A stretch of DNA of 64,000 bases. Origin: a virus. The notes under the pieces are model-generated. The model was not told the origin of the DNA. It saw only the letters and a program-made list of their open reading frames with translations, and searched no databases. Shown in pieces: positions 771-24,865 of the stretch; position 1 is the stretch's first letter; each line of letters starts with the position of its first letter. Made by a program: the position numbers and the translations under genes. Where the stretch lies: the UHGV virus genome UHGV-0371537; one strand, written 5' to 3'.

Positions 771-2680
771 TCATCCTCAGTTTCAAACAGACAAACATCG
801 CTGAACCAGGTTTTGCGATAATCGGCGGCCTCATCACCGAAGCCATTCTTCAGTGACTGTTTGTAGCCGTCGTCCAGCGTGACCGTCGTAGTATACGCAT
901 CCAGGTTGTTTAGAATACGTTTGAAGTCTTCAGTGCTGTTACCGCCCAGACCTTTCAGATATTTCTTCTTCGTGATCTTCTTGGCATCAGGAGTCTTCAG
1001 GAATTCCTCATACTCGGCGTTGTTCATGAACTCATGCATCACCTTACCACACCACACACGCATATAAGGGGTGCGCAGGAGTTTCAGCCTGCCCTGACGG
1101 ACGTACTCTGGCCAGTAAGTGCAATACAAGGTGATCAGCAAGCCACGGATGTGAATGCCGTCATCGTCCGCATCGGTAGCCACAACAGTCTGTGGGTAGC
1201 GGCTGATGTCAAGGGGCTGACCGGGTACTGCGCCGCCATGGATGGTGCACAGGTTCTTGAACTCTTCGTTCGCCATCACTTTTGAGCGCGGTGCGTTCAG
1301 GCAGTTGATGAACTTACCACGAAGCGGGAACAACCCGATCTTTTTGGTGTCACGGGCGTTCAGGATAGGGTTGGAGGCGCTATCACCCTCAGTCAGCAAC
1401 AGGGAGCAGCCACTGCGGTCACCACGGGCGGTCGCCGGGTAATACTTCTCAATCTCACGGTAATCGCGCTTGCTGATATCCTTCTTGGCCTTTTCAAACT
1501 CGGCATCATCCTGGTCGTTGCGCAGAGCCGCCAGTTCTTTGCTCAGGCCAGCTGCAACGAACTCCAGCGCCTTGCGGATGAGTTTGTCGCTGGGCTTGTA
1601 GGATGTGCCAAACTGACTAACAGGAGTCGTCATACGCTCCTTGGTCTGGCTATCAAAGCGCGGGTTGTTGATGTCGGCAGCGATAAACAAGGACATGTGG
1701 TTCTTGATCATTGCTGGCTTCAGTTCGGTCTTGAACTTCTTAACCAGCTGAGGACGAATCGCAGCCACGATCTGGTCGGCCACATAATCAACATGAGGAC
1801 CACCGATGTGGGTGGCGATTGAGTTCACGTATGATGCGTGCATGAACGTACCGGATGAAGGGGCTACAGCAACAGACCAGTCCCCGGTTTCATCGACAGC
1901 GGAGCCAGCGTGGAAGTAATCAACAAAATGGCCGAAGCGGTCAATGCGGATCTGCTTACCATTAAGCACAACCTTCAGGCGCGGGTTACACGCCGCGACT
2001 TCGAATGCACGACGGTAGATCATGAGCAGGTTGTTCTGGTCAAGCCCTTTGACGCCCAGGCGAGCATAGTCAGGGATCCAGGCGATGGTGGTGCCGAACT
2101 CTTTCGGTGTATTGCTGATGACCGGATTAGACTTCTTGCTCATGTTGTCTTCAAACAGCTGGGCATAAGACTTCTTGCCGTCACTGGTAGCAACACGGAA
2201 CCACTTTGAGAACACGTTGACGAGGGACGCCCCTTCGCCATTCTGACCGCCGGACTTCTGGTTGTTGTACTCCTCGTCCTCATCGTTGAAGTTACTACCC
2301 GCATAGAGCGAGCCAAACAACATCTCAGGGAGCCACTCATTGGTGACGCCATGCTTGACCACAGGGATACCCCCGTTGTCAGCAACGATGATTTGACCGT
2401 TCATCGGGGAAACCGTGACAGTGATTTCCGTCAGGGATTTACCCTCAGGCGTCTTGCTGTGGTCAACACAGTTGGTGATGATTTCATCAAACTGTTTGAT
2501 CAGCGCCGGGGAATATTCGAAGTTGTCACGAAAGATGACTTGGTCTTTGGTTGGGTCGTACACCCACACCGTACCAACAGACGAACGGATGCTGCCCAGA
2601 TGACGCTCTGGGCGAAGTAGGATATGCTCAACGTGGGTGAGCTTCTTGTACTTGCGTTCAATATCAATTTTATTGGACAT
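767..2680 (-). CDS. gp39: DNA topoisomerase II large subunit (GyrB-like ATPase plus Toprim), single unsplit ORF
   Basis: 637-aa ORF with GHKL ATPase N-terminus (HILLRPERHLGS), and LLLTEGDSA and VATDADDDGIHI Toprim motifs; T2/T6-type unsplit architecture. Confidence 0.9.
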   Translation of the reverse strand: MSNKIDIERKYKKLTHVEHILLRPERHLGSIRSSVGTVWVYDPTKDQVIFRDNFEYSPALIKQFDEIITNCVDHSKTPEGKSLTEITVTVSPMNGQIIVADNGGIPVVKHGVTNEWLPEMLFGSLYAGSNFNDEDEEYNNQKSGGQNGEGASLVNVFSKWFRVATSDGKKSYAQLFEDNMSKKSNPVISNTPKEFGTTIAWIPDYARLGVKGLDQNNLLMIYRRAFEVAACNPRLKVVLNGKQIRIDRFGHFVDYFHAGSAVDETGDWSVAVAPSSGTFMHASYVNSIATHIGGPHVDYVADQIVAAIRPQLVKKFKTELKPAMIKNHMSLFIAADINNPRFDSQTKERMTTPVSQFGTSYKPSDKLIRKALEFVAAGLSKELAALRNDQDDAEFEKAKKDISKRDYREIEKYYPATARGDRSGCSLLLTEGDSASNPILNARDTKKIGLFPLRGKFINCLNAPRSKVMANEEFKNLCTIHGGAVPGQPLDISRYPQTVVATDADDDGIHIRGLLITLYCTYWPEYVRQGRLKLLRTPYMRVWCGKVMHEFMNNAEYEEFLKTPDAKKITKKKYLKGLGGNSTEDFKRILNNLDAYTTTVTLDDGYKQSLKNGFGDEAADYRKTWFSDVCLFETEDE

Positions 2681-2729
2681 CTGCCTATCCCGTCAATGGT
2701 AAACACACAAGATTATGTATGGGGTTGGC

Positions 2730-3314
2730 TTATAGACCAAATTTGCTGCGCCACTTTTCAACTTTGTGGTTGAATGCTTGCTCCACTTTAATGCGCGTGG
2801 CCATCAAGGAGGAACCACGGATCGCCCCTTCCCCACATCCCATGCGTGCAACATGCGTGATCAGATTATTGATGAGTTTATCCAATCTGTCTTGACTGCG
2901 ATAAGGCTGGTTGCACAACCGGATAATCCGGCCATGATAATGATGGATAAGGTTCAGATGCTTTTGAGGATCACGATCAATCAGACGGAACCAGTCTTCT
3001 TCCAACTGTTTAGAAGAAATATCGTTCACCATCGCCATGCGGGTGATGACCGAATCGATCATTTCGGCCTTGTTCAGAGAGCCGCGCATTTGGACGTCGT
3101 CATAATCCATGACATACAGGAGGTCGATAGCAGAGATGATGACGTCGGCAACTTCGCCATTCAGAGGTTCTGATGGCATACCGATACCATGAAACACATC
3201 AGACAGTTCACAAATCTCTTCACCTAATTTATTCAGGACAAACACAGGCGAGCGGTCTGGGGTATGAGCAGTGCAGTCATAGGAAGTGTCGATGACGGTG
3301 TGTAGAAATTTCAT
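2730..3314 (-). CDS. MazG-like nucleotide pyrophosphohydrolase domain protein (putative)
   Basis: 194 aa; N-terminal EEICELSDVFHG ... EVADVIISAIDL resembles the MazG EExxE...ExxD metal-binding helices. Confidence 0.45.
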   Translation of the reverse strand: MKFLHTVIDTSYDCTAHTPDRSPVFVLNKLGEEICELSDVFHGIGMPSEPLNGEVADVIISAIDLLYVMDYDDVQMRGSLNKAEMIDSVITRMAMVNDISSKQLEEDWFRLIDRDPQKHLNLIHHYHGRIIRLCNQPYRSQDRLDKLINNLITHVARMGCGEGAIRGSSLMATRIKVEQAFNHKVEKWRSKFGL

Positions 3315-3814
3315 TTCAAAGTTCCTTGTATGCGGAGACGGTTAATGTGGTCTATGATAAAGTCCATAGAGTTTTGAAAACTATATTTCCCGTTCCGAAC
3401 GTATGCATGGATCAGTGGGAGTCGACTGTATGCCAATCTGATTTTCAACAGGTCAGGCATTGTCTGGAGTTTCACGCTGGTCGCAAACAGAATATCACGC
3501 TTGAATTCTTCGGTAGACGGATCCAGGACAACAATCCGGGTAGCCGCCAACTCCTGACCATACTGCTTGGCTTCGTAGCCGTCGAGCAGACGCAGGTTGT
3601 CATCCCTATACTTCAGCCAATACCAGTAGCCCTCCATGGAGTTAAACACGCCATGCTCATAGGTAGTCACTGGGTGATGGGTAAAATGCGAGAGGAAGCG
3701 CCCGAGTTCCGTCTGGCTCCGGCTGTAGATGTTGAAGTGATTCTTACCCTCTGTTTCAGGGGTCATCTTGTTCTGTGGAACACTCATTAACAGCATCATG
3801 ATGTAGTTTCTCAA
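3311..3814 (-). CDS. hypothetical protein
   Basis: 167-aa ORF, same strand and tightly packed with neighbours; no motif recognised. Confidence 0.5.
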   Translation of the reverse strand: MRNYIMMLLMSVPQNKMTPETEGKNHFNIYSRSQTELGRFLSHFTHHPVTTYEHGVFNSMEGYWYWLKYRDDNLRLLDGYEAKQYGQELAATRIVVLDPSTEEFKRDILFATSVKLQTMPDLLKIRLAYSRLPLIHAYVRNGKYSFQNSMDFIIDHINRLRIQGTLK

Positions 3815-3841
3815 ATCAAAGTATTGCTGTGTGTAGTGAAA

Positions 3842-4039
3842 TTACTTCTTCATACAGCCCATATAACTGCAGGCCAAGCCGATAGCGGCGAATACGATGG
3901 CAAGGACAAATCGGGTGATCTGCATTTGTGATATTGTGAGCAGCCCGATCACGTTTTCGATCGTCAGGAAGAAACACACTCCAGCGACGATACCTAATTT
4001 GAACGAATTCCGTTCTTTGTTGATCTTGAACCTGTACAT
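3842..4039 (-). CDS. small membrane protein (two predicted TM helices)
   Basis: 65-aa ORF with two hydrophobic stretches (LGIVAGVCFFLTIENVIGLL, FVLAIVFAAIGLACSY). Confidence 0.4.
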   Translation of the reverse strand: MYRFKINKERNSFKLGIVAGVCFFLTIENVIGLLTISQMQITRFVLAIVFAAIGLACSYMGCMKK

Positions 4040-4084
4040 ATGTGCCTCCTGGTTGAAGCGGGGAGTTTCCTCCCCTGTAACTAT

Positions 4085-4564
4085 CTAGCCCAGAAACACT
4101 ACTAAAGTCAAACTAGTTTGCAGACCTGGGTTACTTTGGATGATACTCCAGACTTTAGATTGATATGCCGGATCATGCAAAGAGTCTGATACGACCAGGA
4201 CTTTCGGATTTCTGCCGATAAGCACATCACCCTTTTCAAACTGAAATGTGGTGAACGCGTTGTTCATGCCCACTTCTTCACGATTCAAAGTGAGTTTGAT
4301 CGTCTCCTCTTTCGCGAACATAGCTATGACTTCGAGTCCAGTTTCTTCCAAGAATTGTTTTGAAAGAATATGTTTCAGGGCTGTGGAGTGGCCTGTCTGG
4401 CGCAGAAATCGATGATAGATCGCATCGTCACGCCGTAAAAAATCAATTTTTGATTTACCACGACGAAATTCAACAACTTCAAAAGCATCAAGGATCATCT
4501 GAGTGATGAGTTCGATATGTGGGGTGATGGCGATGTTCACATCACGTTTAACCATAGATTTCAT
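4085..4564 (-). CDS. hypothetical protein
   Basis: 159-aa ORF followed by an intergenic hairpin. Confidence 0.5.
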   Translation of the reverse strand: MKSMVKRDVNIAITPHIELITQMILDAFEVVEFRRGKSKIDFLRRDDAIYHRFLRQTGHSTALKHILSKQFLEETGLEVIAMFAKEETIKLTLNREEVGMNNAFTTFQFEKGDVLIGRNPKVLVVSDSLHDPAYQSKVWSIIQSNPGLQTSLTLVVFLG

Positions 4565-4633
4565 TTGGTGTATCCTCAGTTAGGTTCCGCTCATGGGGAA
4601 CGGGTCCATTATACACCGAATGCCGGAAATGAA

Positions 4634-4653
4634 AAAGAGGCCGGAGCCTCTTT
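4634..4653 (-). terminator. terminator hairpin
   Basis: AAAGAGGC-CGGA-GCCTCTTT followed by a T-run on the minus strand. Confidence 0.5.
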
Positions 4654-4681
4654 TAGTCTTCATATTTACCTGTCCTGAAGT

Positions 4682-4882
4682 TCACTTTCGTGCATTCTTC
4701 AGGTCGAGGTCTTTGAAGATATTCCCAAAGATCTTTTGGAATGGGGTCTGCTCTTGTTCTTCCTCAAGATCCTTGGGTTTCTTGACAGGCTCCTTCACCA
4801 TACCACCTTCGGGTTTCCCCACATCGGTGGTAGTGGTGCCAGGGGCTGCCGAGTCTTCAAGAAAGTCCTGGAAGCCCTTCAT
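4682..4882 (-). CDS. hypothetical small acidic protein
   Basis: 66-aa ORF directly downstream of the Ig-like gene (stop/start nearly abutting); a terminator hairpin follows. Confidence 0.35.
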   Translation of the reverse strand: MKGFQDFLEDSAAPGTTTTDVGKPEGGMVKEPVKKPKDLEEEQEQTPFQKIFGNIFKDLDLKNARK

Positions 4883-4884
4883 GA

Positions 4885-5706
4885 TTAGACCACAGCCATT
4901 TCACAACGGGCGGAGGTCACAGAATGGCCATCGGCGTCTTCGACAACACACCAGTATTCACCTTCATCAGCAGCGTCGACTGCAGTGATGACCAGGTTAG
5001 CGGTAGCGGCGGTCGCGTTGGTGCCAGCATCGATAACCACACCTTCACCACCAGGGACATCAGAGAAATACCACACGTAAGTGTAAGGTGTGGTGCCACC
5101 AGAAGCCACAACACTGAAGGTAGCGTCCTGGCCAGCCGTTACGTCTTGGGAAGCCGCGAGGTCTGTAGACAACGCGAGCAGACCAGCCACTGTAATGACA
5201 GTAGAGTCTGTGTGACCGCCTTCGATGGTAACACCGTACACAGTCACAGAACCAGAAGCCAGCAGCTTGAATTTGCCGCCGCCAATGTGAACGGCTTTGG
5301 TCAGATCACCGGAGTACCAGTTCACGCCCTGATATGTGGCATTCTCTGGAGCTACGGTGGCCAACAGTTCAACAATCTGGCCGATTTCGCCGCTTGCTGT
5401 TGCCGGAGTGATGGTCAGTCCAGTGGTCAGTACAGCACTTGGGTCGTGGATTTCGTAAGAGATCTCGAAGCCAACAGGCTTTGTTGGATCCACTTTGGTC
5501 ACACCGTCGGCCTGCAGGTTACTGCGGGTCAGCAGAGCGTCCAGGCCTTTACATTCTGTCAGCACTTCGTCAGGATCTTGGTTCAGGCTGGTCTTCTCCC
5601 AACCCTTGGCAGTGCCTGTAACAACATGCAGGCGTTCAGTTTCCGGTTTGTTGCGAACAACTTCCGGGGCGACTAATACAGTGATCGTTGGCATGGTTTC
5701 CTCCAC
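4885..5706 (-). CDS. Ig-like domain protein (Big_2 / I-set-like), possible capsid or virion decoration protein
   Basis: 273 aa, Thr/Ala/Gly-rich beta-sandwich-like sequence with an I-set-like EGEYWCVVEDADGHSVTS strand motif and TPYTYVWYF. Confidence 0.6.
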   Translation of the reverse strand: MEETMPTITVLVAPEVVRNKPETERLHVVTGTAKGWEKTSLNQDPDEVLTECKGLDALLTRSNLQADGVTKVDPTKPVGFEISYEIHDPSAVLTTGLTITPATASGEIGQIVELLATVAPENATYQGVNWYSGDLTKAVHIGGGKFKLLASGSVTVYGVTIEGGHTDSTVITVAGLLALSTDLAASQDVTAGQDATFSVVASGGTTPYTYVWYFSDVPGGEGVVIDAGTNATAATANLVITAVDAADEGEYWCVVEDADGHSVTSARCEMAVV

Positions 5707-6065
5707 TCATCCAAATCGTTGTTCAGAGCCATCATCAGCTCATTATCTGGTTCATATGAACCGGAACATAAATCATCGCGCCATACGCCGATCGTCAACA
5801 AAGCAGCCTTGAGGCGAGGACGCTGGGTTTCATCTGTTTTCAACACCAACATTCTACAAGCAGCTTCTGCCTCGAACGTGTTGAACACAGTAATCAATTG
5901 ATTAAGAATCAGCCGTGGACTCTTGCCAGGCACAAATCTCTTCAATGATTGATTAATTAGCGAAATCCGCTGTATGTCCACCAACACCTCATCCCATGAG
6001 ACAGAATCAACAATGTAATGCCTCAGAGCATAGTCCATCAGATTGCTTTCGTCAACGATAGCCAT
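5673..6065 (-). CDS. hypothetical protein
   Basis: 130-aa ORF. Confidence 0.4.
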   Translation of the reverse strand: MAIVDESNLMDYALRHYIVDSVSWDEVLVDIQRISLINQSLKRFVPGKSPRLILNQLITVFNTFEAEAACRMLVLKTDETQRPRLKAALLTIGVWRDDLCSGSYEPDNELMMALNNDLDEWRKPCQRSLY

Positions 6066-11806: not shown

Positions 11807-12010
11807 TCACTTACGTTTGCGCTTGTTCTTTCCATTGGTCTTCGCCTTCTTCTTGCGGGTTACAGATGGACGACCATGTCCGGCGGTGCCAGGACCACTG
11901 TTGACGTAGCGACTTTCATCCCAGAAATCACCACGGTGTTGGGCAACCTGAACGCTCTCTGACAACGCCAGAGCCGCAGCCACAACAACTGAAGACATCT
12001 TCGGCTTCAT
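11807..12010 (-). CDS. hypothetical small secreted protein (signal-peptide-like N-terminus, basic C-terminus)
   Basis: 67 aa, MKPKMSSVVVAAALALS hydrophobic N-terminus, KKKAKTNGKNKRKRK tail. Confidence 0.3.
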   Translation of the reverse strand: MKPKMSSVVVAAALALSESVQVAQHRGDFWDESRYVNSGPGTAGHGRPSVTRKKKAKTNGKNKRKRK

Positions 12011-12462
12011 TTCGTTTCCCCCTTGGCGGCATAGGACAGCGCCTGAACAATCATCACAGCCAGATCGATCGGTGAGTAGGTGCTGTTCAGATCTTCGCGA
12101 ACGCTCTGCTCGATTTCATAATCAGACTGAACTTCAGGACAGTTCTTTTCCTGGCGACGGCGTTCTGCGTTGATCATATCGCGCAGGAGCAGGTCGGTGA
12201 AGGAGTACTCATCAAAGTTCTCCAGATAATTCTGAATCCCCGTGGATACAGGGGCTGGCTCCGTCTCTCGCGCTCCTGTATCTTTCAGGGCGGCAACAGT
12301 GGCGTTAGCTGATACCATACAGTTGGGCAGGAACAGAAGATCAACTGTTTCTCCTGACTCTGAAGTCGGGTTCTTGCCCAGCACCTTGTACAGGGTCTTC
12401 AGGGTGCTGTCGAAGGTCAGAACGGTCTGCGCCAGTTCTTCATAAGTTGGTTTGGTGGTCAT
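12007..12462 (-). CDS. hypothetical protein
   Basis: 151-aa ORF; its stop overlaps the start of the preceding ORF. Confidence 0.5.
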   Translation of the reverse strand: MTTKPTYEELAQTVLTFDSTLKTLYKVLGKNPTSESGETVDLLFLPNCMVSANATVAALKDTGARETEPAPVSTGIQNYLENFDEYSFTDLLLRDMINAERRRQEKNCPEVQSDYEIEQSVREDLNSTYSPIDLAVMIVQALSYAAKGETK

Positions 12463-12839
12463 CAGCGTTTGCTCCGGCGTTTGTTCTTCATTTTAGTGGC
12501 CTGACGTTTGTGAGCAGCGGCTCCACGCAGGCGTGTGGGTTCTTGATAGCGGCGGTCGGCGTAAAATTCACGCATGCTGGCCTCGGCTGGTAATTCTCTT
12601 TCATCCAGTCGTTTCAGCTTGGCGATCAATTCCTTGGTGTCTGGCATCTGTTGTAGCTCGTCACAGATGATCATGCGTTCACCCGATTCACTTCGACGCT
12701 TCGGGATATCATCGGGAGTGATGTGCACAACCTCAACTCCTGGCAGCTTCTCTTCCAGTAGAACTTTGATCAACCGAGAGCCCAGTCCGGCTCCAACAAT
12801 CGCAATCTTTCTTGGCTTGTCTGTCATGTTCTTGTCCAT
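12462..12839 (-). CDS. hypothetical protein (Gly-rich IAIVGAGLGS N-terminus, basic C-terminus)
   Basis: 125-aa ORF preceded by a hairpin and a recurring TTATTGAA motif. Confidence 0.5.
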   Translation of the reverse strand: MDKNMTDKPRKIAIVGAGLGSRLIKVLLEEKLPGVEVVHITPDDIPKRRSESGERMIICDELQQMPDTKELIAKLKRLDERELPAEASMREFYADRRYQEPTRLRGAAAHKRQATKMKNKRRSKR

Positions 12840-12845
12840 GAAAAA

Positions 12846-12878
12846 GGGGATAGAGCAATAATACCCTATCCCCTTTTA
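12846..12878 (-). terminator. hairpin with flanking T-runs (terminator or attenuator) inside the early gene run
   Basis: GGGGATAGAGCAATAATACCCTATCCCC with TTTT on both sides; adjacent to the recurring TTATTGAAGAACG motif. Confidence 0.45.
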
Positions 12879-12896
12879 TTGAAGAACGATTAGTCT

Positions 12897-13304
12897 TCAG
12901 ATTCGACCGCCAATTTTTTCGCCGCGCATGTCCAGAACCGGTTTGCCTCCGACCGCCATCACATAGATGGTGTTGATTGTCTCGAACCAAGACAGTGCAT
13001 CAACACCTTCAGTGTACGGCGTCACCGGAATAGAGGTCTTGATCTCTTTACCCTTCGTGTTCGGATGTTCTGTGACTTGTAGGAACGCACAATTGCCACT
13101 TGGGTGGATAATGCCCTCTTCGAACAGCACGATCTTCTTGCGAGGGTGATTGGCTTCACCCAGGCACACCACCAGATGATGGATCATCTCGGGGCGGGTA
13201 ATCAACGTGTCGTCTTTGATGATCCCTTGCTTGATAGCAGAGATCACTATTTCGTCCACCAGAGCCTGCTGTTGACAAATGGACAGCGTATGTTCTAGTT
13301 TCAT
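12897..13304 (-). CDS. hypothetical protein
   Basis: 135-aa ORF. Confidence 0.5.
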   Translation of the reverse strand: MKLEHTLSICQQQALVDEIVISAIKQGIIKDDTLITRPEMIHHLVVCLGEANHPRKKIVLFEEGIIHPSGNCAFLQVTEHPNTKGKEIKTSIPVTPYTEGVDALSWFETINTIYVMAVGGKPVLDMRGEKIGGRI

Positions 13305-13308
13305 GGCA

Positions 13309-13878
13309 TCAGCCTTTGAAGTTGATCGGTTTCTGAACCCCAGCGTCGAACGCGGCCTGGGTACGGGTATCGCTCACAACTTGACAGGTCTTGTCAAGAT
13401 CGATGCGCGGGTAGCCAAACATGCCAGCGATCAACGAACCAGGGAACTGAGCCAGCTTGGTTTCGTACATTGCGCAGATATCCAGCTTCTTGGTCTGGCT
13501 GATGCGGAATTCATCACGCCCAGAACTGATCACCACCTGGATCTCTTTGTACAGGCTGGAATCGAACTGAATGTTCTGCTCCTGGATCCACTGCATAACA
13601 GCCTTGGAACCATCAGCGCCATAACGCCCTTCGAACGTGCCTTTGATCACTTCCTTCAGGCCGTCTTTGTACATGTCAGGAATCTGCGCCGTCTCCTGAA
13701 CTTTGAGCGTGTAGTTGCTCAGGTAGTTCTCTGAGTCTTTGTTGAACTTCTTGACCTGCTGTTCGGTGCGGTTGAAGTCGTTGAAGTAGCTGATGACTGT
13801 GCCGATGCCGACAATCACCATACCCAGCAAAGCCAAACCAACGATCCAACCTGTTGCAATACCCTTAGATTGAGACAT
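13309..13878 (-). CDS. LemA-family membrane protein
   Basis: 189 aa, single N-terminal TM helix (WIVGLALLGMVIVGIGTVISYF) followed by a soluble helical domain; size and topology typical of LemA. Confidence 0.6.
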   Translation of the reverse strand: MSQSKGIATGWIVGLALLGMVIVGIGTVISYFNDFNRTEQQVKKFNKDSENYLSNYTLKVQETAQIPDMYKDGLKEVIKGTFEGRYGADGSKAVMQWIQEQNIQFDSSLYKEIQVVISSGRDEFRISQTKKLDICAMYETKLAQFPGSLIAGMFGYPRIDLDKTCQVVSDTRTQAAFDAGVQKPINFKG

Positions 13879-13896
13879 TCTTACTTCCTCTTTTGA

Positions 13897-15012
13897 TTAA
13901 AAATTAAACGGATAACGACGACGGCCACCATTGTACTCCATTCGCTGCAATATGAAAATTGCGGTGAACGGCAGACAGCCCAGCAGAACAACAACCACAA
14001 CTTCCCAGGTCTTGAGTTCCCGCCACTTCAGGTACTCCATTTCCTTCATCTCAACGCGGTTGTAGCCTTTGGTGATGTTGGCGACAACGTCTGTCATGAC
14101 GCCGATACCCATATCATGCCCAGTCAGGTCCATACCGTTGCGGGAGTGAAGTTCACGGTTGTGCATACCATCGGCGAAGGAGGTGCTCTTGCCCCAATTG
14201 ATCTTCAGATCTTTGCTGATGTCGGTCACGACGATAACGTCGTTCTTTTTACCGCCATCCCAAGCATAGACCAAGCCCTGGAAGTATTCAACTGGCTGGC
14301 CGGAAGTCACAACCCAGACGATGTTCACCTGCTTGGCCGCGCCCAGCTTCTTCAGAACATCATTCAGGTAGTCGTTCCAGTATGTGGTTGGCAAAGCCAG
14401 ACCAGACACGTTCAGGACACGAGTGACGCGATAGTAGTCATAGACCTCAGGGTACTTGGGAATCTTGTCTTTGAAGCGCTCAGCAAACTGCTGGTCTGAG
14501 CGGGAGAACAGAGAGTCCTTGTTGCCCAGAACATAGTTCATATAGGAGTGCTCACGGGCGGCTGGCTCACCAATCTGAACCTGCGCCCAGCGCGGCGGCT
14601 GGCCAAGACCACGGCGGTCAATGCGGTCAATCGTCAGATTACCAACAGTCGTCAGCACATCCCAGTCCACGTCGTATGAATGCTCATAGCAGGTGCTGCA
14701 ATGGCGGGTACGGGTACAGGACTTGCTGCTACCGGAGCCGGAACACGATGTGGTGTAGTAGCAGTTGCACTGATACGAGTGCTCACAGCTCACCTTGTTC
14801 CGCTCTTTGCCAGTGACGTACCCGTTCAAGATCTCAACATCCCCTGAACTGCCGAGGGAGAACGCAGCATAAGCCCCGACCTGAATCAGACAGGACAGCA
14901 CCACCACAATCGCCGTCGCAATCAGAGTCTCTTTCGGCTCATGGGTCTTGCGGTGGTAGACCACAAACAGGACAGCCAGGATCAGTGGTACACCAAACAG
15001 GAGGTAGATCAT
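13897..15012 (-). CDS. membrane protein with Cys-rich extracytoplasmic region, partner of the LemA-like gene
   Basis: 371 aa, two N-terminal TM helices, Cys cluster (CEHSYQCNCYYTTSCSGSGSSKSCTRTRHCSTCYEH) and a C-terminal TM helix; lies 19 nt upstream of the LemA-like gene. Confidence 0.6.
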   Translation of the reverse strand: MIYLLFGVPLILAVLFVVYHRKTHEPKETLIATAIVVVLSCLIQVGAYAAFSLGSSGDVEILNGYVTGKERNKVSCEHSYQCNCYYTTSCSGSGSSKSCTRTRHCSTCYEHSYDVDWDVLTTVGNLTIDRIDRRGLGQPPRWAQVQIGEPAAREHSYMNYVLGNKDSLFSRSDQQFAERFKDKIPKYPEVYDYYRVTRVLNVSGLALPTTYWNDYLNDVLKKLGAAKQVNIVWVVTSGQPVEYFQGLVYAWDGGKKNDVIVVTDISKDLKINWGKSTSFADGMHNRELHSRNGMDLTGHDMGIGVMTDVVANITKGYNRVEMKEMEYLKWRELKTWEVVVVVLLGCLPFTAIFILQRMEYNGGRRRYPFNF

Positions 15013-15395
15013 AACACACCATCCACGAGTTGTGCCTTGGTCATCCCAAGGAGTTGATCTTTGTGCTCAGGCTTGGCACCGTTCTTTAACAACAGATCCC
15101 AACGCTCTTCATGGTACTGTGGGTCCAGCGCTTCATCAAATGTGATGTGATGGCGGAACATAACAGTTGCCACTGAATGGACGCAGTGAGCGATTGCGCG
15201 CTTCAGAGTGCGTTCTGGCGTAATGTGCTTTTTATATTCAATGCCCATCAGATCCAATTCTTTGAAAAGATAGGAGAATGACAGGGCGCCTTGTGAATGC
15301 AGCACGACGATAGTGGCTTTCTTAGGGTGGAGTGTACCATCCGTTTCTTTCATGAACAGATCGTACAGGTACTGTTTGTATTCGGTCTGTGTCAT
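15009..15395 (-). CDS. hypothetical protein
   Basis: 128-aa ORF with overlapping start/stop with neighbours. Confidence 0.5.
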   Translation of the reverse strand: MTQTEYKQYLYDLFMKETDGTLHPKKATIVVLHSQGALSFSYLFKELDLMGIEYKKHITPERTLKRAIAHCVHSVATVMFRHHITFDEALDPQYHEERWDLLLKNGAKPEHKDQLLGMTKAQLVDGVL

Positions 15396-15604
15396 TTAGA
15401 TTCACCCATGACGATAACGGAAGCGCCATTACGGAAGCACCCATATTCAGGTGGAAGACCTTCGCGAACTTTCTGTGCGAACGCTTCAGAAACCACCAGA
15501 CGGCCAACCAGAGGGTCTTTTTGTTTCGGAGTGAACTCAAAGTAATCACCAAAAGTCGCTTCCATATCCAGTAGGGACATATCTTCAATTCGTTGCATTG
15601 CCAT
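15392..15604 (-). CDS. hypothetical protein
   Basis: 70-aa ORF. Confidence 0.4.
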   Translation of the reverse strand: MAMQRIEDMSLLDMEATFGDYFEFTPKQKDPLVGRLVVSEAFAQKVREGLPPEYGCFRNGASVIVMGESK

Positions 15605-15623
15605 GATGTATTTCCTTGCAAAA

Positions 15624-15660
15624 GAAAGGGGAACGGGCTAATATTAACCCATTCCCCTTT
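15624..15660 (-). terminator. hairpin with T-run (terminator or attenuator)
   Basis: GGGGAACGGG-N-CCCATTCCCC followed by TTTATTGAAGAACG. Confidence 0.45.
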
Positions 15661-15685
15661 ATTGAAGAACGCAATCGCAATCAGA

Positions 15686-15889: not shown

Positions 15890-17116
15890 TCAGCGTTTCA
15901 AGAGTGCCATGAGGTTGACGCTGTTGGACTTCGGTTTATCAATCTTCGGTTTACCCAATTCTCGATACACCTGGTCAGGCTCCCAGCGCGTACCCTTTTG
16001 CAGATGCCAGATATGTAGAGGAACGCCAGTCTCAAAGAACACAGGCATCTTCCACTTCTGGACGCCTGGAACGTGCCCTGCAGGAGCCTTTTCGCACAAC
16101 AGGGTATCTGGTAGCCAGAGTGAACGGGCTTCCCAGAGCGCTGCACAGGAGTACTCCGGCCAGATGCGTTCCATGTAGTCGATCTCATCCCAGGTACGCT
16201 CGGCATCCCACCCAATGTAACGGGTATTCTTCTCACGGAAGAACTTCTTCAACCAACAAGCGCCCGAGGTTTCAAAGTTCAGGCGGTTGATGAACGTCAG
16301 GTGCCCAAACTCGGCCACGCAATCCTGGAACGCCTGCTCAAGGTCAGCCTCAAGGATGTCACACTCTTCATCCGTGATAGGGCAGCCATTTATCTTTTTC
16401 TTCCCGTGTTTGGTCACCCAATCGTCGCGGTTGGACAAGAACGCCGCGCCGTTACGGTTGGACTCACTGCCATCACGGTCACGCAACATGAAACCAGGGA
16501 CGTCGATATCCCACATGTTACCGAAGACCATGTTCAGGGCTTCCAGAAAGTTCCAGGCGCTGAGGCGGCCGAAGTATTTCCAGGACATCGCCGTGTCCCA
16601 CAACTTAGTGAACTGGTCGCCTTGGGGCTTGGTCTCCAACATCGGTCGGAATGCTTCCATCTGGGAGCGCCCAGCCAGCCAGTCAATGTAGGACTGAACA
16701 CATGGTATCATCTTCGACTTGCGATAGCGACAGTCAGTATCGAAACGCATGCGATCAAAGTTCAGGTTGTACCAGTCACAAAAGCACTGCATCTCTTCTT
16801 TAGACTGAGGAGGCACAGGGAACTCACTGTAGATCGTCCATGGACCGATGGCGTTATAACAGCAGCCCCAAAGGAACGACATCCAGATCTTGCGCTCGAT
16901 CTTCTCAAGCTGCGTGATGCCTTCAGTGACTTCAATCGCGTAGTCCATCAGGCGCATCTGCTGGTTGTGCTCTTCGGTGTAAGACAGCGCCTCCACCCAA
17001 GCCTTGAGCAGGTACATGCGATTCTCAGGCTTACGATAATCAACAGCCAGGTCAATCGGGTACTTCCATTCAGCCGGAGGCGTATAGCCTGATGGCATTT
17101 TAGAAATATGAATCAT
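15890..17116 (-). CDS. hypothetical Trp/Cys-rich protein; candidate DNA-base-modification enzyme (aGPT-Pplase-like?), assignment uncertain
   Basis: 408-aa ORF in the same operon-like run as a P-loop kinase; no catalytic motif recognised by eye. Confidence 0.55.
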   Translation of the reverse strand: MIHISKMPSGYTPPAEWKYPIDLAVDYRKPENRMYLLKAWVEALSYTEEHNQQMRLMDYAIEVTEGITQLEKIERKIWMSFLWGCCYNAIGPWTIYSEFPVPPQSKEEMQCFCDWYNLNFDRMRFDTDCRYRKSKMIPCVQSYIDWLAGRSQMEAFRPMLETKPQGDQFTKLWDTAMSWKYFGRLSAWNFLEALNMVFGNMWDIDVPGFMLRDRDGSESNRNGAAFLSNRDDWVTKHGKKKINGCPITDEECDILEADLEQAFQDCVAEFGHLTFINRLNFETSGACWLKKFFREKNTRYIGWDAERTWDEIDYMERIWPEYSCAALWEARSLWLPDTLLCEKAPAGHVPGVQKWKMPVFFETGVPLHIWHLQKGTRWEPDQVYRELGKPKIDKPKSNSVNLMALLKR

Positions 17117-17638: not shown

Positions 17639-17838
17639 TTTGGTTCCTTGAATATTTTGTAACCAGCAGCGCCGATAGACATCACCGCGCCAATACAGTA
17701 CATCACAGTCACGTTCAACTTCTCTGAGGTTGTTAAGTCCAGAGGGGTGAAATGATAGGCTAGGGCAGCGCACATTGAAACGGCTACCATAATCAGGCCG
17801 ATGAACAACAGATAATTAGACAACCGCTTCATGATCAC
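17635..17838 (-). CDS. small membrane protein (two TM helices)
   Basis: 67 aa, LLFIGLIMVAVSMCAALAY and VMYCIGAVMSIGAAGY hydrophobic segments. Confidence 0.4.
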   Translation of the reverse strand: MIMKRLSNYLLFIGLIMVAVSMCAALAYHFTPLDLTTSEKLNVTVMYCIGAVMSIGAAGYKIFKEPK

Positions 17839-18749
17839 CCCTTCTTCATCAGGTCAAGGAGAGAGCGCGACGCTGCCTTCGGTGCTTCTGTCTGGGCACT
17901 CGCCTTGGTTTTAGTTTTGGATGCCTTCTGCGGCTTCTCAGGCACTCTGTGCGCCAAAGGATCCTCACCACCGACCTCACGGGTCATTGGGTCGGTCTCA
18001 CAGAAAGCATAGAAGTCTTTGCTGTAAAACCCATACGCTCGAGTTTCGTCCAATTGATGGTGGATAGCATTACCAACCACCCACAAAGGAGCATCGAACG
18101 GAAGGATAGCCACTTCTGAATTTGTCGGTGATTTGAACTCCTGAGTGTTGGTTTCCGGTGCTTTATACAGAATGTCCTGCCCGCTGTAGTTGTCAACCAC
18201 AGGGGTGAAGCCCAGCGCCAGCATTTCGGCCTTCGACTTCTCAAACTCCTTGGAGTAAGATTCGTTGCGAGACCAGCCGGAGTCCCCTGCTTCTTTACCA
18301 GAGCGACCACGGATGCGGGCATCGTACTGATAGCGGTCGGGGTACGCAAAGTACAGCAGCGCCAATGATTCAATCGGATAGTTCTTGAACATCCACTCAG
18401 GACGCCATTTGTCCGACAGCATGAGGGGTTCGCCCTCACACACCAGGGTGTAACCCTGAGCCAGCCAGCCTTTGACCAGGTCACGAGCGATATCACCCGA
18501 GCCTGTGGCAGCATGAATGGCGTCCATGGAAGTCCAGGAAGCCAGGCCGGATTTGTTGGACACAGTGTACTGGCCGACGAAGATCAACTTCAGCTCTTCG
18601 AATTTCAGGCCAAACGGGCGCGTCTTGTCACCAATGGTGTAGGTGAGTTCGGTAGGCTCCAGCTTAGTGCGCAGCCATTCGATGAACTGAACCACTCTCG
18701 TACCCTTGCCCGTGGCCGAGGTGCCTTTCACTACAATTATTTTAGCCAT
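17835..18749 (-). CDS. P-loop kinase (Walker A GTSATGKGT); candidate nucleotide or DNA kinase
   Basis: 304 aa with N-terminal Walker A motif IIVVKGTSATGKGT; no resemblance to T4 dNMP kinase or Pnk in my recollection. Confidence 0.6.
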   Translation of the reverse strand: MAKIIVVKGTSATGKGTRVVQFIEWLRTKLEPTELTYTIGDKTRPFGLKFEELKLIFVGQYTVSNKSGLASWTSMDAIHAATGSGDIARDLVKGWLAQGYTLVCEGEPLMLSDKWRPEWMFKNYPIESLALLYFAYPDRYQYDARIRGRSGKEAGDSGWSRNESYSKEFEKSKAEMLALGFTPVVDNYSGQDILYKAPETNTQEFKSPTNSEVAILPFDAPLWVVGNAIHHQLDETRAYGFYSKDFYAFCETDPMTREVGGEDPLAHRVPEKPQKASKTKTKASAQTEAPKAASRSLLDLMKKG

Positions 18750-24828: not shown

Positions 24829-24865
24829 AATATTTATTGAAGAAAGGGGCTTAACGCCCCCTTTC

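Follow-up and report, generated by a model that had tools for sequence, protein, structure and literature searches.

What is encoded by two adjacent membrane protein genes on the minus strand of the UHGV virus genome UHGV-0371537, and which role they may play during infection, are the questions raised by the locus examined here, which lies within an analysed stretch of 64,000 nucleotides (nt; hereafter the window). The two genes encode a LemA-like protein of 189 amino acids (aa; gene A) and a TPM-like protein of 371 aa (gene B), and are jointly referred to as the pair or the cassette. A preliminary description of this DNA had reported two open reading frames (ORFs) of these lengths in the same direction, with B preceding A, and both were recovered at exactly those positions on the minus strand. 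Profile comparisons, structure predictions and comparative genomics indicate that the pair represents a viral version of the LemA–TPM gene pair of bacteria. The favoured account as a whole, i.e. a diverged LemA–TPM cassette, the products of which form a complex on the same, periplasmic side of the membrane with an accessory role in the envelope, is assigned a probability of roughly 0.55, while the identity and architecture of the cassette (a LemA-superfamily protein A and a TPM-fold protein B) are regarded as very probable. The pair is arranged as follows, the E (expectation) values being those of the PHROG matches:

13897..15012, minus strand: gene B, 371 aa, ATG start; three-pass membrane protein, first of the pair; phrog_2087 (E=9e-164)
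13879..13896, minus strand: B–A spacer of 18 nt with the Shine–Dalgarno sequence AGAGGAAG for gene A
13309..13878, minus strand: gene A, 189 aa, ATG start; single-pass membrane protein, second of the pair; phrog_1383 (E=1e-86)

These PHROG matches, together with the numbers of homologue clusters (97 for A and, counted as protein clusters at 90% identity, at least 456 for B), the phage records retrieved by tblastn and the low ratios of non-synonymous to synonymous substitutions (dN/dS) presented below, show that A and B are real genes and not chance ORFs.

Protein A was predicted to consist of two parts:

13780..13869, minus strand: transmembrane (TM) anchor of A, residues ~4–33 by hydropathy; part of a continuous helix (residues 5–63) in the AlphaFold2 model
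13387..13782, minus strand: LemA-like helical domain of A, residues ~33–164; residues 24–163 are aligned by hhalign

The preliminary description had placed A in the LemA family. This assignment did not hold at the Pfam threshold, as the window protein scored 13.8 bits (E=0.053) against LemA (PF04011), over residues 125–158 only and below the gathering score of 26.2 bits; a precomputed Pfam domain was found in none of the 97 homologue clusters, and NCBIfam returned noise only. It did hold at the level of the superfamily, to which A was connected by profile–profile and reciprocal searches. Weak Pfam LemA matches were obtained for 8 of 42 family members (best E=0.0016), LemA being the most recurrent Pfam family among them, and a PDB profile search with the same 42 members returned LemA 2etd as its best match (E=0.0025), colinear over residues 32–160. 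Alignment of the A family with 30 bona fide PF04011 proteins using hhalign extended over 138 columns (96.3%, E=1.7e-9), while the single sequence of A aligned with 2etd at P=3.6e-4. In the reciprocal direction, a hidden Markov model (HMM) of the phage A family matched exactly the LemA ORF in all of the 80 bacterial lemA loci that were fetched (best E=2.9e-11). An exhaustive profile search reported 1398 representatives, of which the best 150 were listed.

The architecture of A corresponds to that of bacterial LemA proteins (one TM helix, 186–208 aa), in that a single N-terminal TM helix is followed by an all-helical domain (AlphaFold2 model, pLDDT 81.5). The C-terminal Y...FP....FG[YF] motif is retained in A (YETKLAQFPGSLIAGMFGYP) and several LemA-invariant positions are aligned (N51, R85 and E100/N102), while the N-terminal hallmark LQRRxDLIPN is replaced, with LSNYTLKVQE aligned in its place. 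The crystal structure of the Thermotoga LemA protein TM0961 (2etd) is the best PDB sequence-profile match, and the model of A is likewise all-helical. A common four-helix-bundle fold is no more than a possibility, as in a Foldseek search of the PDB with the full-length model of A, 2etd ranked seventh (E=0.7, TM-score 0.28–0.35) and was not separated from other helical bundles. As judged from these sequence comparisons, A is a divergent protein of the LemA superfamily and not a canonical LemA family member. The protein is already named 'LemA' in a few entries (RPN242 and one UniRef name).

Protein B is larger and composite, and the following parts were distinguished:

14953..15009, minus strand: TM helix 1 of B, residues ~2–20 in the AlphaFold2 model (1–22 by hydropathy)
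14845..14937, minus strand: TM helix 2 of B, residues ~26–56 in the AlphaFold2 model (27–55 by hydropathy)
14539..14844, minus strand: phage-specific β-rich domain of B, residues ~57–158, with a Cys/His cluster at residues 76–111 (nt 14680–14787)
14023..14418, minus strand: TPM-fold domain of B, residues ~199–330, with a GGKKND motif at residues 253–258
13930..14010, minus strand: C-terminal TM segment of B, residues ~335–361 (333–358 by hydropathy; AlphaFold2 helices 335–345 and 347–361)

Hydropathy and AlphaFold2 thus agree on the TM layout proposed earlier, namely one helix in A and two N-terminal helices plus a C-terminal one in B, the last being followed by a short basic tail (mean of 3.7 Lys+Arg over ~16 residues). 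In the AlphaFold2 model of B (pLDDT 87.9, predicted TM-score 0.77), residues ~199–330 display a TPM-type α/β fold, with a central four-stranded sheet and flanking amphipathic helices, and the top Foldseek match was LMTP1 (probability 0.99). Comparison by hhalign of the B family with 53 TPM proteins encoded next to bacterial lemA genes gave 84.4% (E=7e-6), spanning only 57 columns around the W-G-x-G...N-x-V core. The preliminary description had suggested looking for TPM- or DUF2207-like domains in the partner of A. The TPM fold was recovered, but the Pfam threshold was not reached, the window protein having no PF04536 match at E≤1 (gathering score 22.1 bits) and 9 of 42 family members having weak ones (best E=1.8e-4); DUF2207, which is the other frequent neighbour of LemA, gave no match in the window protein and was not among the recurrent families of the 42 members.

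The dense Cys cluster noted earlier in the 371-aa protein comprises seven residues (C76, C82, C84, C90, C99, C105 and C108), accompanied by H78 and H111, and the loop is almost devoid of Cys outside this cluster. In an alignment of 196 sequences (the window protein and 195 unique homologues), seven Cys were present in 145 sequences, C76 and C82 were conserved in 99% and H78 and H111 in 93%; in the GGKKND motif, G253 and N257 were invariant and K255, K256 and D258 were conserved in 97–99%. The odd number of Cys residues and the two conserved His residues may indicate a metal site. The Cys-rich domain had no structural relative in the Foldseek search, and the B-family HMM found no match in the 80 bacterial lemA loci, which therefore offered no direct cellular orthologue with this Cys-rich architecture.

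Such conservation could be explained if the cassette were a periplasmic enzyme, in which a surface component or envelope precursor is processed, for instance dephosphorylated, by the TPM domain, with its GGKKND motif, and the Cys/His metal site, the LemA-like protein serving as scaffold or regulator. The near-invariant motif, the 93% conservation of H78 and H111 and the odd Cys count are consistent with such an activity, as are the divalent metal binding of several TPM proteins (TPM literature) and the very low dN/dS, which fits a constrained active site. We nevertheless consider it improbable, as there is no agreed single activity for TPM proteins, the structure–function relation of which is unsettled (TPM literature), no catalytic residues are mapped and the Cys-rich domain lacks a structural relative.

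Bacterial LemA had been described as typically paired with a membrane partner, and this was borne out. Of the 80 bacterial lemA loci, 67 contained a same-strand ORF starting within 250 nt downstream, and 51 of the 53 such ORFs tested encoded a PF04536 protein (best E=1e-45), with an architecture of signal peptide, TPM domain, C-terminal TM helix and Gly-rich tail. Given the homology of both proteins and the paired arrangement of their cellular relatives, we interpret the phage pair as the viral form of this LemA–TPM module. Both systems combine a single-TM protein with a helical part of ~150 aa and a TPM domain protein with a C-terminal TM helix, encoded by adjacent and co-oriented genes. However, the order of the genes is the opposite, since the TPM-like gene comes first in phages and lemA comes first in bacteria, and both phage proteins depart from their cellular relatives: A has lost the LQRRxDLIPN hallmark and gained a co-varying Cys pair, whereas in B two N-terminal TM helices and the Cys/His-rich β domain replace the signal peptide and the Gly-rich C-terminal tail is absent. 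On the strength of the homology, the phage pair is a highly diverged descendant of the cellular pair. No annotation or paper was found that recognizes B as a TPM domain protein or the pair as a viral LemA–TPM counterpart.

Among the TPM proteins with a known context, TLP18.3, Psb32 and LMTP1, which participate in photosystem II repair or maturation, are found on the non-cytoplasmic face, either in the lumen or tethered to the membrane, and probably resemble B in this respect. As accessory factors they are dispensable, and some of them bind metal or carry a redox-active Cys pair. Their identity with phage B is 14–15% only, their photosystem II client complex is absent from enterobacterial hosts, and the Cys residues of phage B, unlike theirs, lie in a separate N-terminal domain and not in the TPM domain.

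To what extent the two genes travel together was assessed in 80 viral loci from IMG/VR, centred on B. In 78 of these, A lies downstream of B in the same orientation, the other two contigs ending just after B, and the genes were directly adjacent in 73 loci, many of them with a 4-nt overlap. When neighbouring ORFs were clustered across 30 lineage groups, A and B alone were common, every other family being confined to one lineage. Furthermore, pairwise identities of A and B correlated with r=0.94 overall and 0.75 for divergent pairs, the maximum in 200 label shuffles being 0.12. The conservation of the pair in related phages, which the preliminary description had named as decisive alongside profile homology to LemA, therefore extends over 78 of 80 loci and 30 lineages, far beyond close relatives, and neither observation that it held capable of overturning its proposal was made.

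A tblastn search of 50,697 phage records retrieved A from 502 and B from 487 of them (~1%), with matching host-by-host counts. Carriers include Ackermannviridae, T4-like Aeromonas phages, T5-like phages of Vibrio, Providencia and Aeromonas, Acinetobacter phages of ~100 kb and the jumbo phages 121Q, RaK2, XbC2, Deimos-Minion and Moabite, with weaker matches in Lak megaphages and Bacillus phage G; among the matches listed, every record was at least 100 kb in length except for a single partial record of 14 kb. Weak matches to A (29–36% identity) were seen in the Prevotella Lak megaphages MK250024 and MK250019 and in Tenacibaculum phage PTm5. Fifteen Prevotella records are missing from the B counts, B being either absent there or too diverged to be detected.

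Selection on the pair was estimated by comparing the window phage, a large, virulent, Agtrevirus-like member of the Ackermannviridae, with Dickeya phage LIMEstone1, the two genomes sharing only ~69% DNA homology overall (PMC3296691). The dN/dS values were 0.007 for A and 0.023 for B, compared with 0.09 for the adjacent DNA-modification enzyme and 0.13–0.31 for small flanking genes, and the A and B proteins are 98–99.5% identical between Shigella/Salmonella and Dickeya phages. Both genes are under extreme purifying selection, tighter than that on the neighbouring DNA-modification enzyme, and dN/dS values this low between phages of different host genera were counted toward a conserved target or activity.

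A different aspect of the evolution of the cassette is seen in Vibrio phage ICP1. The cassette was present in 8 of 82 ICP1 genomes, all belonging to the DRC lineage, while the flanks were at least 95% identical in all 82; in the reference isolate ICP1_2006_E, unrelated small genes occupy its position. A serine recombinase gene (Resolvase domain, E=7e-10) lies directly downstream of the pair in the DRC lineage, and at the DNA level the ICP1 cassette has its nearest relative in an Aeromonas phage (71% identity). This DRC gene set, found in ICP1 MW794146 at 2450–5978 between GP30 and GP40/41, where it differs from that of the reference isolate, has the appearance of a mobile insertion or replacement within an early/middle-early block. 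The presence/absence pattern, the Aeromonas relative and the adjoining recombinase together indicate that the cassette is dispensable for the lytic cycle and horizontally exchanged.

Mobile accessory genes of this kind are compatible with superinfection exclusion or phage–phage competition, in which a periplasm-facing complex would keep secondary phages from penetrating the envelope or delivering their genomes; exclusion had also been among the roles proposed in the preliminary description. Precedents are the T4 membrane proteins Imm and Sp, which are unrelated to the pair and exclude secondary phages. Both A and B are membrane proteins and probably face the periplasm, the pair is located among early/middle-type genes in the window and in ICP1, the cassette is self-contained, with no other conserved partner, and its occurrence beside a recombinase in 8 of 82 near-identical ICP1 genomes marks it as accessory and mobile. 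Conversely, exclusion and competition genes usually diversify fast, whereas the pair is under extreme purifying selection across host genera; the family descends from a housekeeping-type cellular operon; PADLOC gave no meaningful match, and comparison with Pfam, PHROGs and NCBIfam revealed no relationship to known exclusion proteins. A weak PADLOC match of A to LeoBC (18 bits) was disregarded, as it covered the TM region (TM and first helix of A); B had no match. Imm and Sp, along with rI and rIII, which act in lysis inhibition, are small inner-membrane or periplasmic T4 proteins that act on the envelope and are non-essential in the laboratory. They are functional analogues only, without similarity to the pair in the same three databases, and the pair differs from them in its clear cellular ancestry, wider distribution and stronger conservation. 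We regard exclusion as rather unlikely, although it is the main rival explanation; membrane remodelling, also named in the preliminary description, is a further possibility.

The favoured account, a diverged LemA–TPM cassette acting in the envelope, depends on the side of the membrane on which the two proteins are exposed. A continuous 553-aa ORF encoding a B–A fusion was found at 1012–2673 in one JGI metagenome contig (3300014198, 9.5 kb), from one sample only; genes encoding CTP_transf_like, Metallophos and Gad2 domains are among its neighbours. As the fusion has two TM helices between them, the soluble loop of B and the helical domain of A would be located on the same face of the membrane. 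Two Cys residues of A bear on the identity of this face:

13474–13476, minus strand: Cys135 of A, inside the helical domain
13384–13386, minus strand: Cys165 of A, just past the end of the domain

Both were present in 93 homologues and neither in 149, while no homologue carried a single one, which is the pattern expected of a disulfide bond; 30 bacterial LemA proteins contained no Cys at all. In ~5 of 254 homologues of A, the TM anchor is replaced by a lipobox-type signal peptide, and Lys and Arg are more abundant in the N-terminal tail of A than after its TM helix, a bias shared with cellular LemA. Cellular TPM partners carry signal peptides, and characterized TPM proteins face the lumen or periplasm (TPM literature). 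Taken together, the Cys patterns of A and B, the lipobox variants, the charge bias and the location of the TPM proteins suggest that the shared face is periplasmic. It appears likely that the soluble parts of A and B lie together on this face and act as a complex, with A probably stabilized by a disulfide and B probably carrying disulfides and/or a metal site.

Under the favoured account, B is a three-pass inner-membrane protein, the large loop of which comprises a Cys/His-rich β domain followed by the TPM-fold domain, and A is a membrane-anchored, helical LemA-superfamily protein that probably serves as its partner at the periplasmic face. The cassette represents an accessory, horizontally mobile module of virulent phages of ~100 kb or more, and might act on a conserved inner-membrane or envelope component of the host, keeping or resetting envelope function through a long infection cycle. 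This helper role is drawn by analogy with TPM proteins, which are non-essential helpers in the assembly or repair of membrane complexes, several of them metal-binding, with no single agreed activity (TPM literature); envelope maintenance is accordingly offered as a tentative proposal, the likeliest of the roles considered but with the odds against it. A broader reading, likewise with the odds against it, is that large virulent phages of Gram-negative bacteria have in common a hitherto unrecognized periplasmic machine of two proteins, made up of a LemA-like bundle and of a TPM domain joined to a new Cys/His metal-binding domain, which manipulates a conserved envelope or energy-transducing complex of the host; as the cassette occurs in only some ICP1 isolates, it would then also provide a first experimental approach to the widespread LemA–TPM operon of bacteria.

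Several points weigh against the favoured account. The window proteins fall below the Pfam thresholds for both the LemA and TPM families, and the literature yielded no experiment with members of the A or B phage families, nor any functional study linking LemA to TPM proteins, phages or Psp. The B–A fusion is a single metagenomic observation and may be an assembly or stop-codon artefact, and a direct interaction between A and B is deduced only indirectly. For the third TM segment of B, the positive-inside rule is ambiguous (3.8 Lys+Arg before versus 3.7 after), and a Cys/His metal site could equally exist in the cytoplasm. The analogy with the cellular LemA–TPM pair carries little mechanistic content, since the function of that pair is itself unexplained, while mobility and patchy presence in near-identical ICP1 isolates are also typical of phage–phage competition genes.

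Among bacterial membrane proteins lacking a known function, LemA and TPM proteins are some of the most common, and a viral offshoot of them occurs in ~1% of phage records; through this offshoot, a fold is assigned to a family of at least 456 clusters at 90% identity without current domain annotation. ICP1 isolates with and without the cassette represent a ready natural genetic comparison and, if the cassette indeed acts on a conserved envelope complex of the host, the role of the cellular module could be revealed.

Participation of the cassette in the virion or the lysis machinery is unlikely. Gene A is labelled 'virion structural protein' in RefSeq records of Ag3, CBA120, fHe-Yen9-04, phiAS5 and others, and PHROG 1383 carries the same label; a few records, such as Pectobacterium phage DU_PP_V and Shigella phage Gloob, even name it 'major capsid protein', and one UniRef entry 'Lipoprotein'. 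Taken at face value, these labels would make A a structural component of the particle. The label is confined to RefSeq copies, where no supporting note is given, whereas the submitters' GenBank records mostly describe a hypothetical or membrane protein. Mass spectrometry of LIMEstone1 virions identified 39 proteins (PMC3296691), and the orthologues of the pair in this phage, ORF194 and ORF195, are missing from this set. Furthermore, A has a TM anchor, LemA homology and a constant partner with three TM helices, and its gene lies outside the structural module and is missing from 74 of 82 ICP1 genomes. A structural role of A is therefore highly improbable, and the widespread 'virion structural protein' (occasionally 'major capsid protein') annotation is corrected here as a propagated misannotation.

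A role in lysis timing, which the preliminary description had also considered, would make the pair an antiholin, a component of lysis inhibition or a spanin-like pair. In outline, with its N-terminal TM helix, helical domain and two Cys residues, A is reminiscent of an i-spanin, and rIIA and rIIB are located ~2–6 kb downstream of the pair on the same strand. Nonetheless, none of the 30 lineages showed a lysis gene linked to the pair, and the ICP1 cassette resides in an early/middle-early block, whereas lysis genes belong to the late class (ICP1 transcriptome paper); the absence of the cassette from 74 of 82 ICP1 genomes likewise argues against such a device, which is considered very unlikely. 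The spanin reading in particular was rejected, as A is homologous to LemA and not to spanins, B is not a small lipoprotein of the o-spanin type, so that a lipoprotein partner is missing, and lysis genes are not linked.

'Early' expression of the pair, as deduced from its position in the window and in ICP1, is plausible. Genes of the ICP1_2006_E block into which the cassette falls in the DRC lineage reach their peak at 4–8 min (ICP1 transcriptome), but this transcriptome provides no temporal class for the pair itself, since the sequenced reference isolate lacks the cassette; no relevant Ackermannviridae transcriptome was found in the literature. Also relevant to this timing is a putative late promoter annotated in LIMEstone1 ahead of the small gene that precedes the pair, and a TATAAATA box is found at the corresponding place in the window.

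Around the pair, the window shares ~95% identity with Shigella phages MK-13 and Ag3. Here both genes form part of a long minus-strand replication/rII block. The order of this block in the direction of transcription is DNA polymerase, kinase, amino-acid:DNA transferase, the pair, DUF7231, DUF7181, rIIA, rIIB, a Hoc-like gene and topoisomerase II. Gene B starts within a 4-nt overlap with the end of the ORF upstream of it, and the start of gene A is preceded by a strong Shine–Dalgarno sequence (AAAGAGGAAGTAAGA-ATG). A B–A spacing of 15–19 nt is maintained throughout the Ackermannviridae, while 4-nt overlaps occur in many other lineages. An ORF of 151 aa on the plus strand (13279..13734) was rejected as a gene, as it is an antisense shadow of gene A; comparable ORFs antisense to gene A recur in 12 loci from eight lineages, a pattern best accounted for as the shadow cast by the conserved coding strand.

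The pair forms part of a five-gene unit (15604..12897, minus strand), bracketed by two exact copies of GTTCTTCAATAAA:

15615..15671, minus strand: upstream unit boundary, consisting of a GTTCTTCAATAAA box, a GC hairpin and a T-tract, ending ~12 nt ahead of the unit's first gene
12840..12887, minus strand: downstream unit boundary, consisting of the second exact GTTCTTCAATAAA copy followed by a hairpin and a T-tract
12875–12887, minus strand: exact GTTCTTCAATAAA copy
15658–15670, minus strand: exact GTTCTTCAATAAA copy
24833–24845, minus strand: GTTCTTCAATAAA copy with one mismatch
30853–30865, plus strand: GTTCTTCAATAAA copy with one mismatch

A pattern search of the window for GTTCTTCAATAAA returned these four matches (two exact and two with one mismatch), compared with 0.08 expected, and the element is probably a genome-specific terminator or a combined terminator/promoter signal. 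In the LIMEstone1 record, terminators are annotated at the equivalents of both unit boundaries, with a putative -10 element overlapping the downstream one. A scan for sigma-70 promoters yielded three sites versus 5.2 expected by chance, none of them upstream of the five-gene unit.

Just upstream of the pair, an amino-acid:DNA transferase is encoded at 15890–17116 on the minus strand (Pfam ADDT, E=4.7e-60), and further upstream, at 17835–18749 on the same strand, a P-loop kinase-like gene was found ('guanylate kinase' in PHROG). Both are parts of the thymidine-hypermodification pathway typical of ViI-like phages. A functional tie of the pair to these genes was rejected, as the linkage is confined to Ackermannviridae, and is also disfavoured by A and B being membrane proteins with probably periplasmic domains. 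Two genes that match newly described Pfam families without assigned function, DUF7231 (12462–12839, E=5e-63) and DUF7181 (12007–12462, E=8e-60), separate the pair from rIIA, both on the minus strand.

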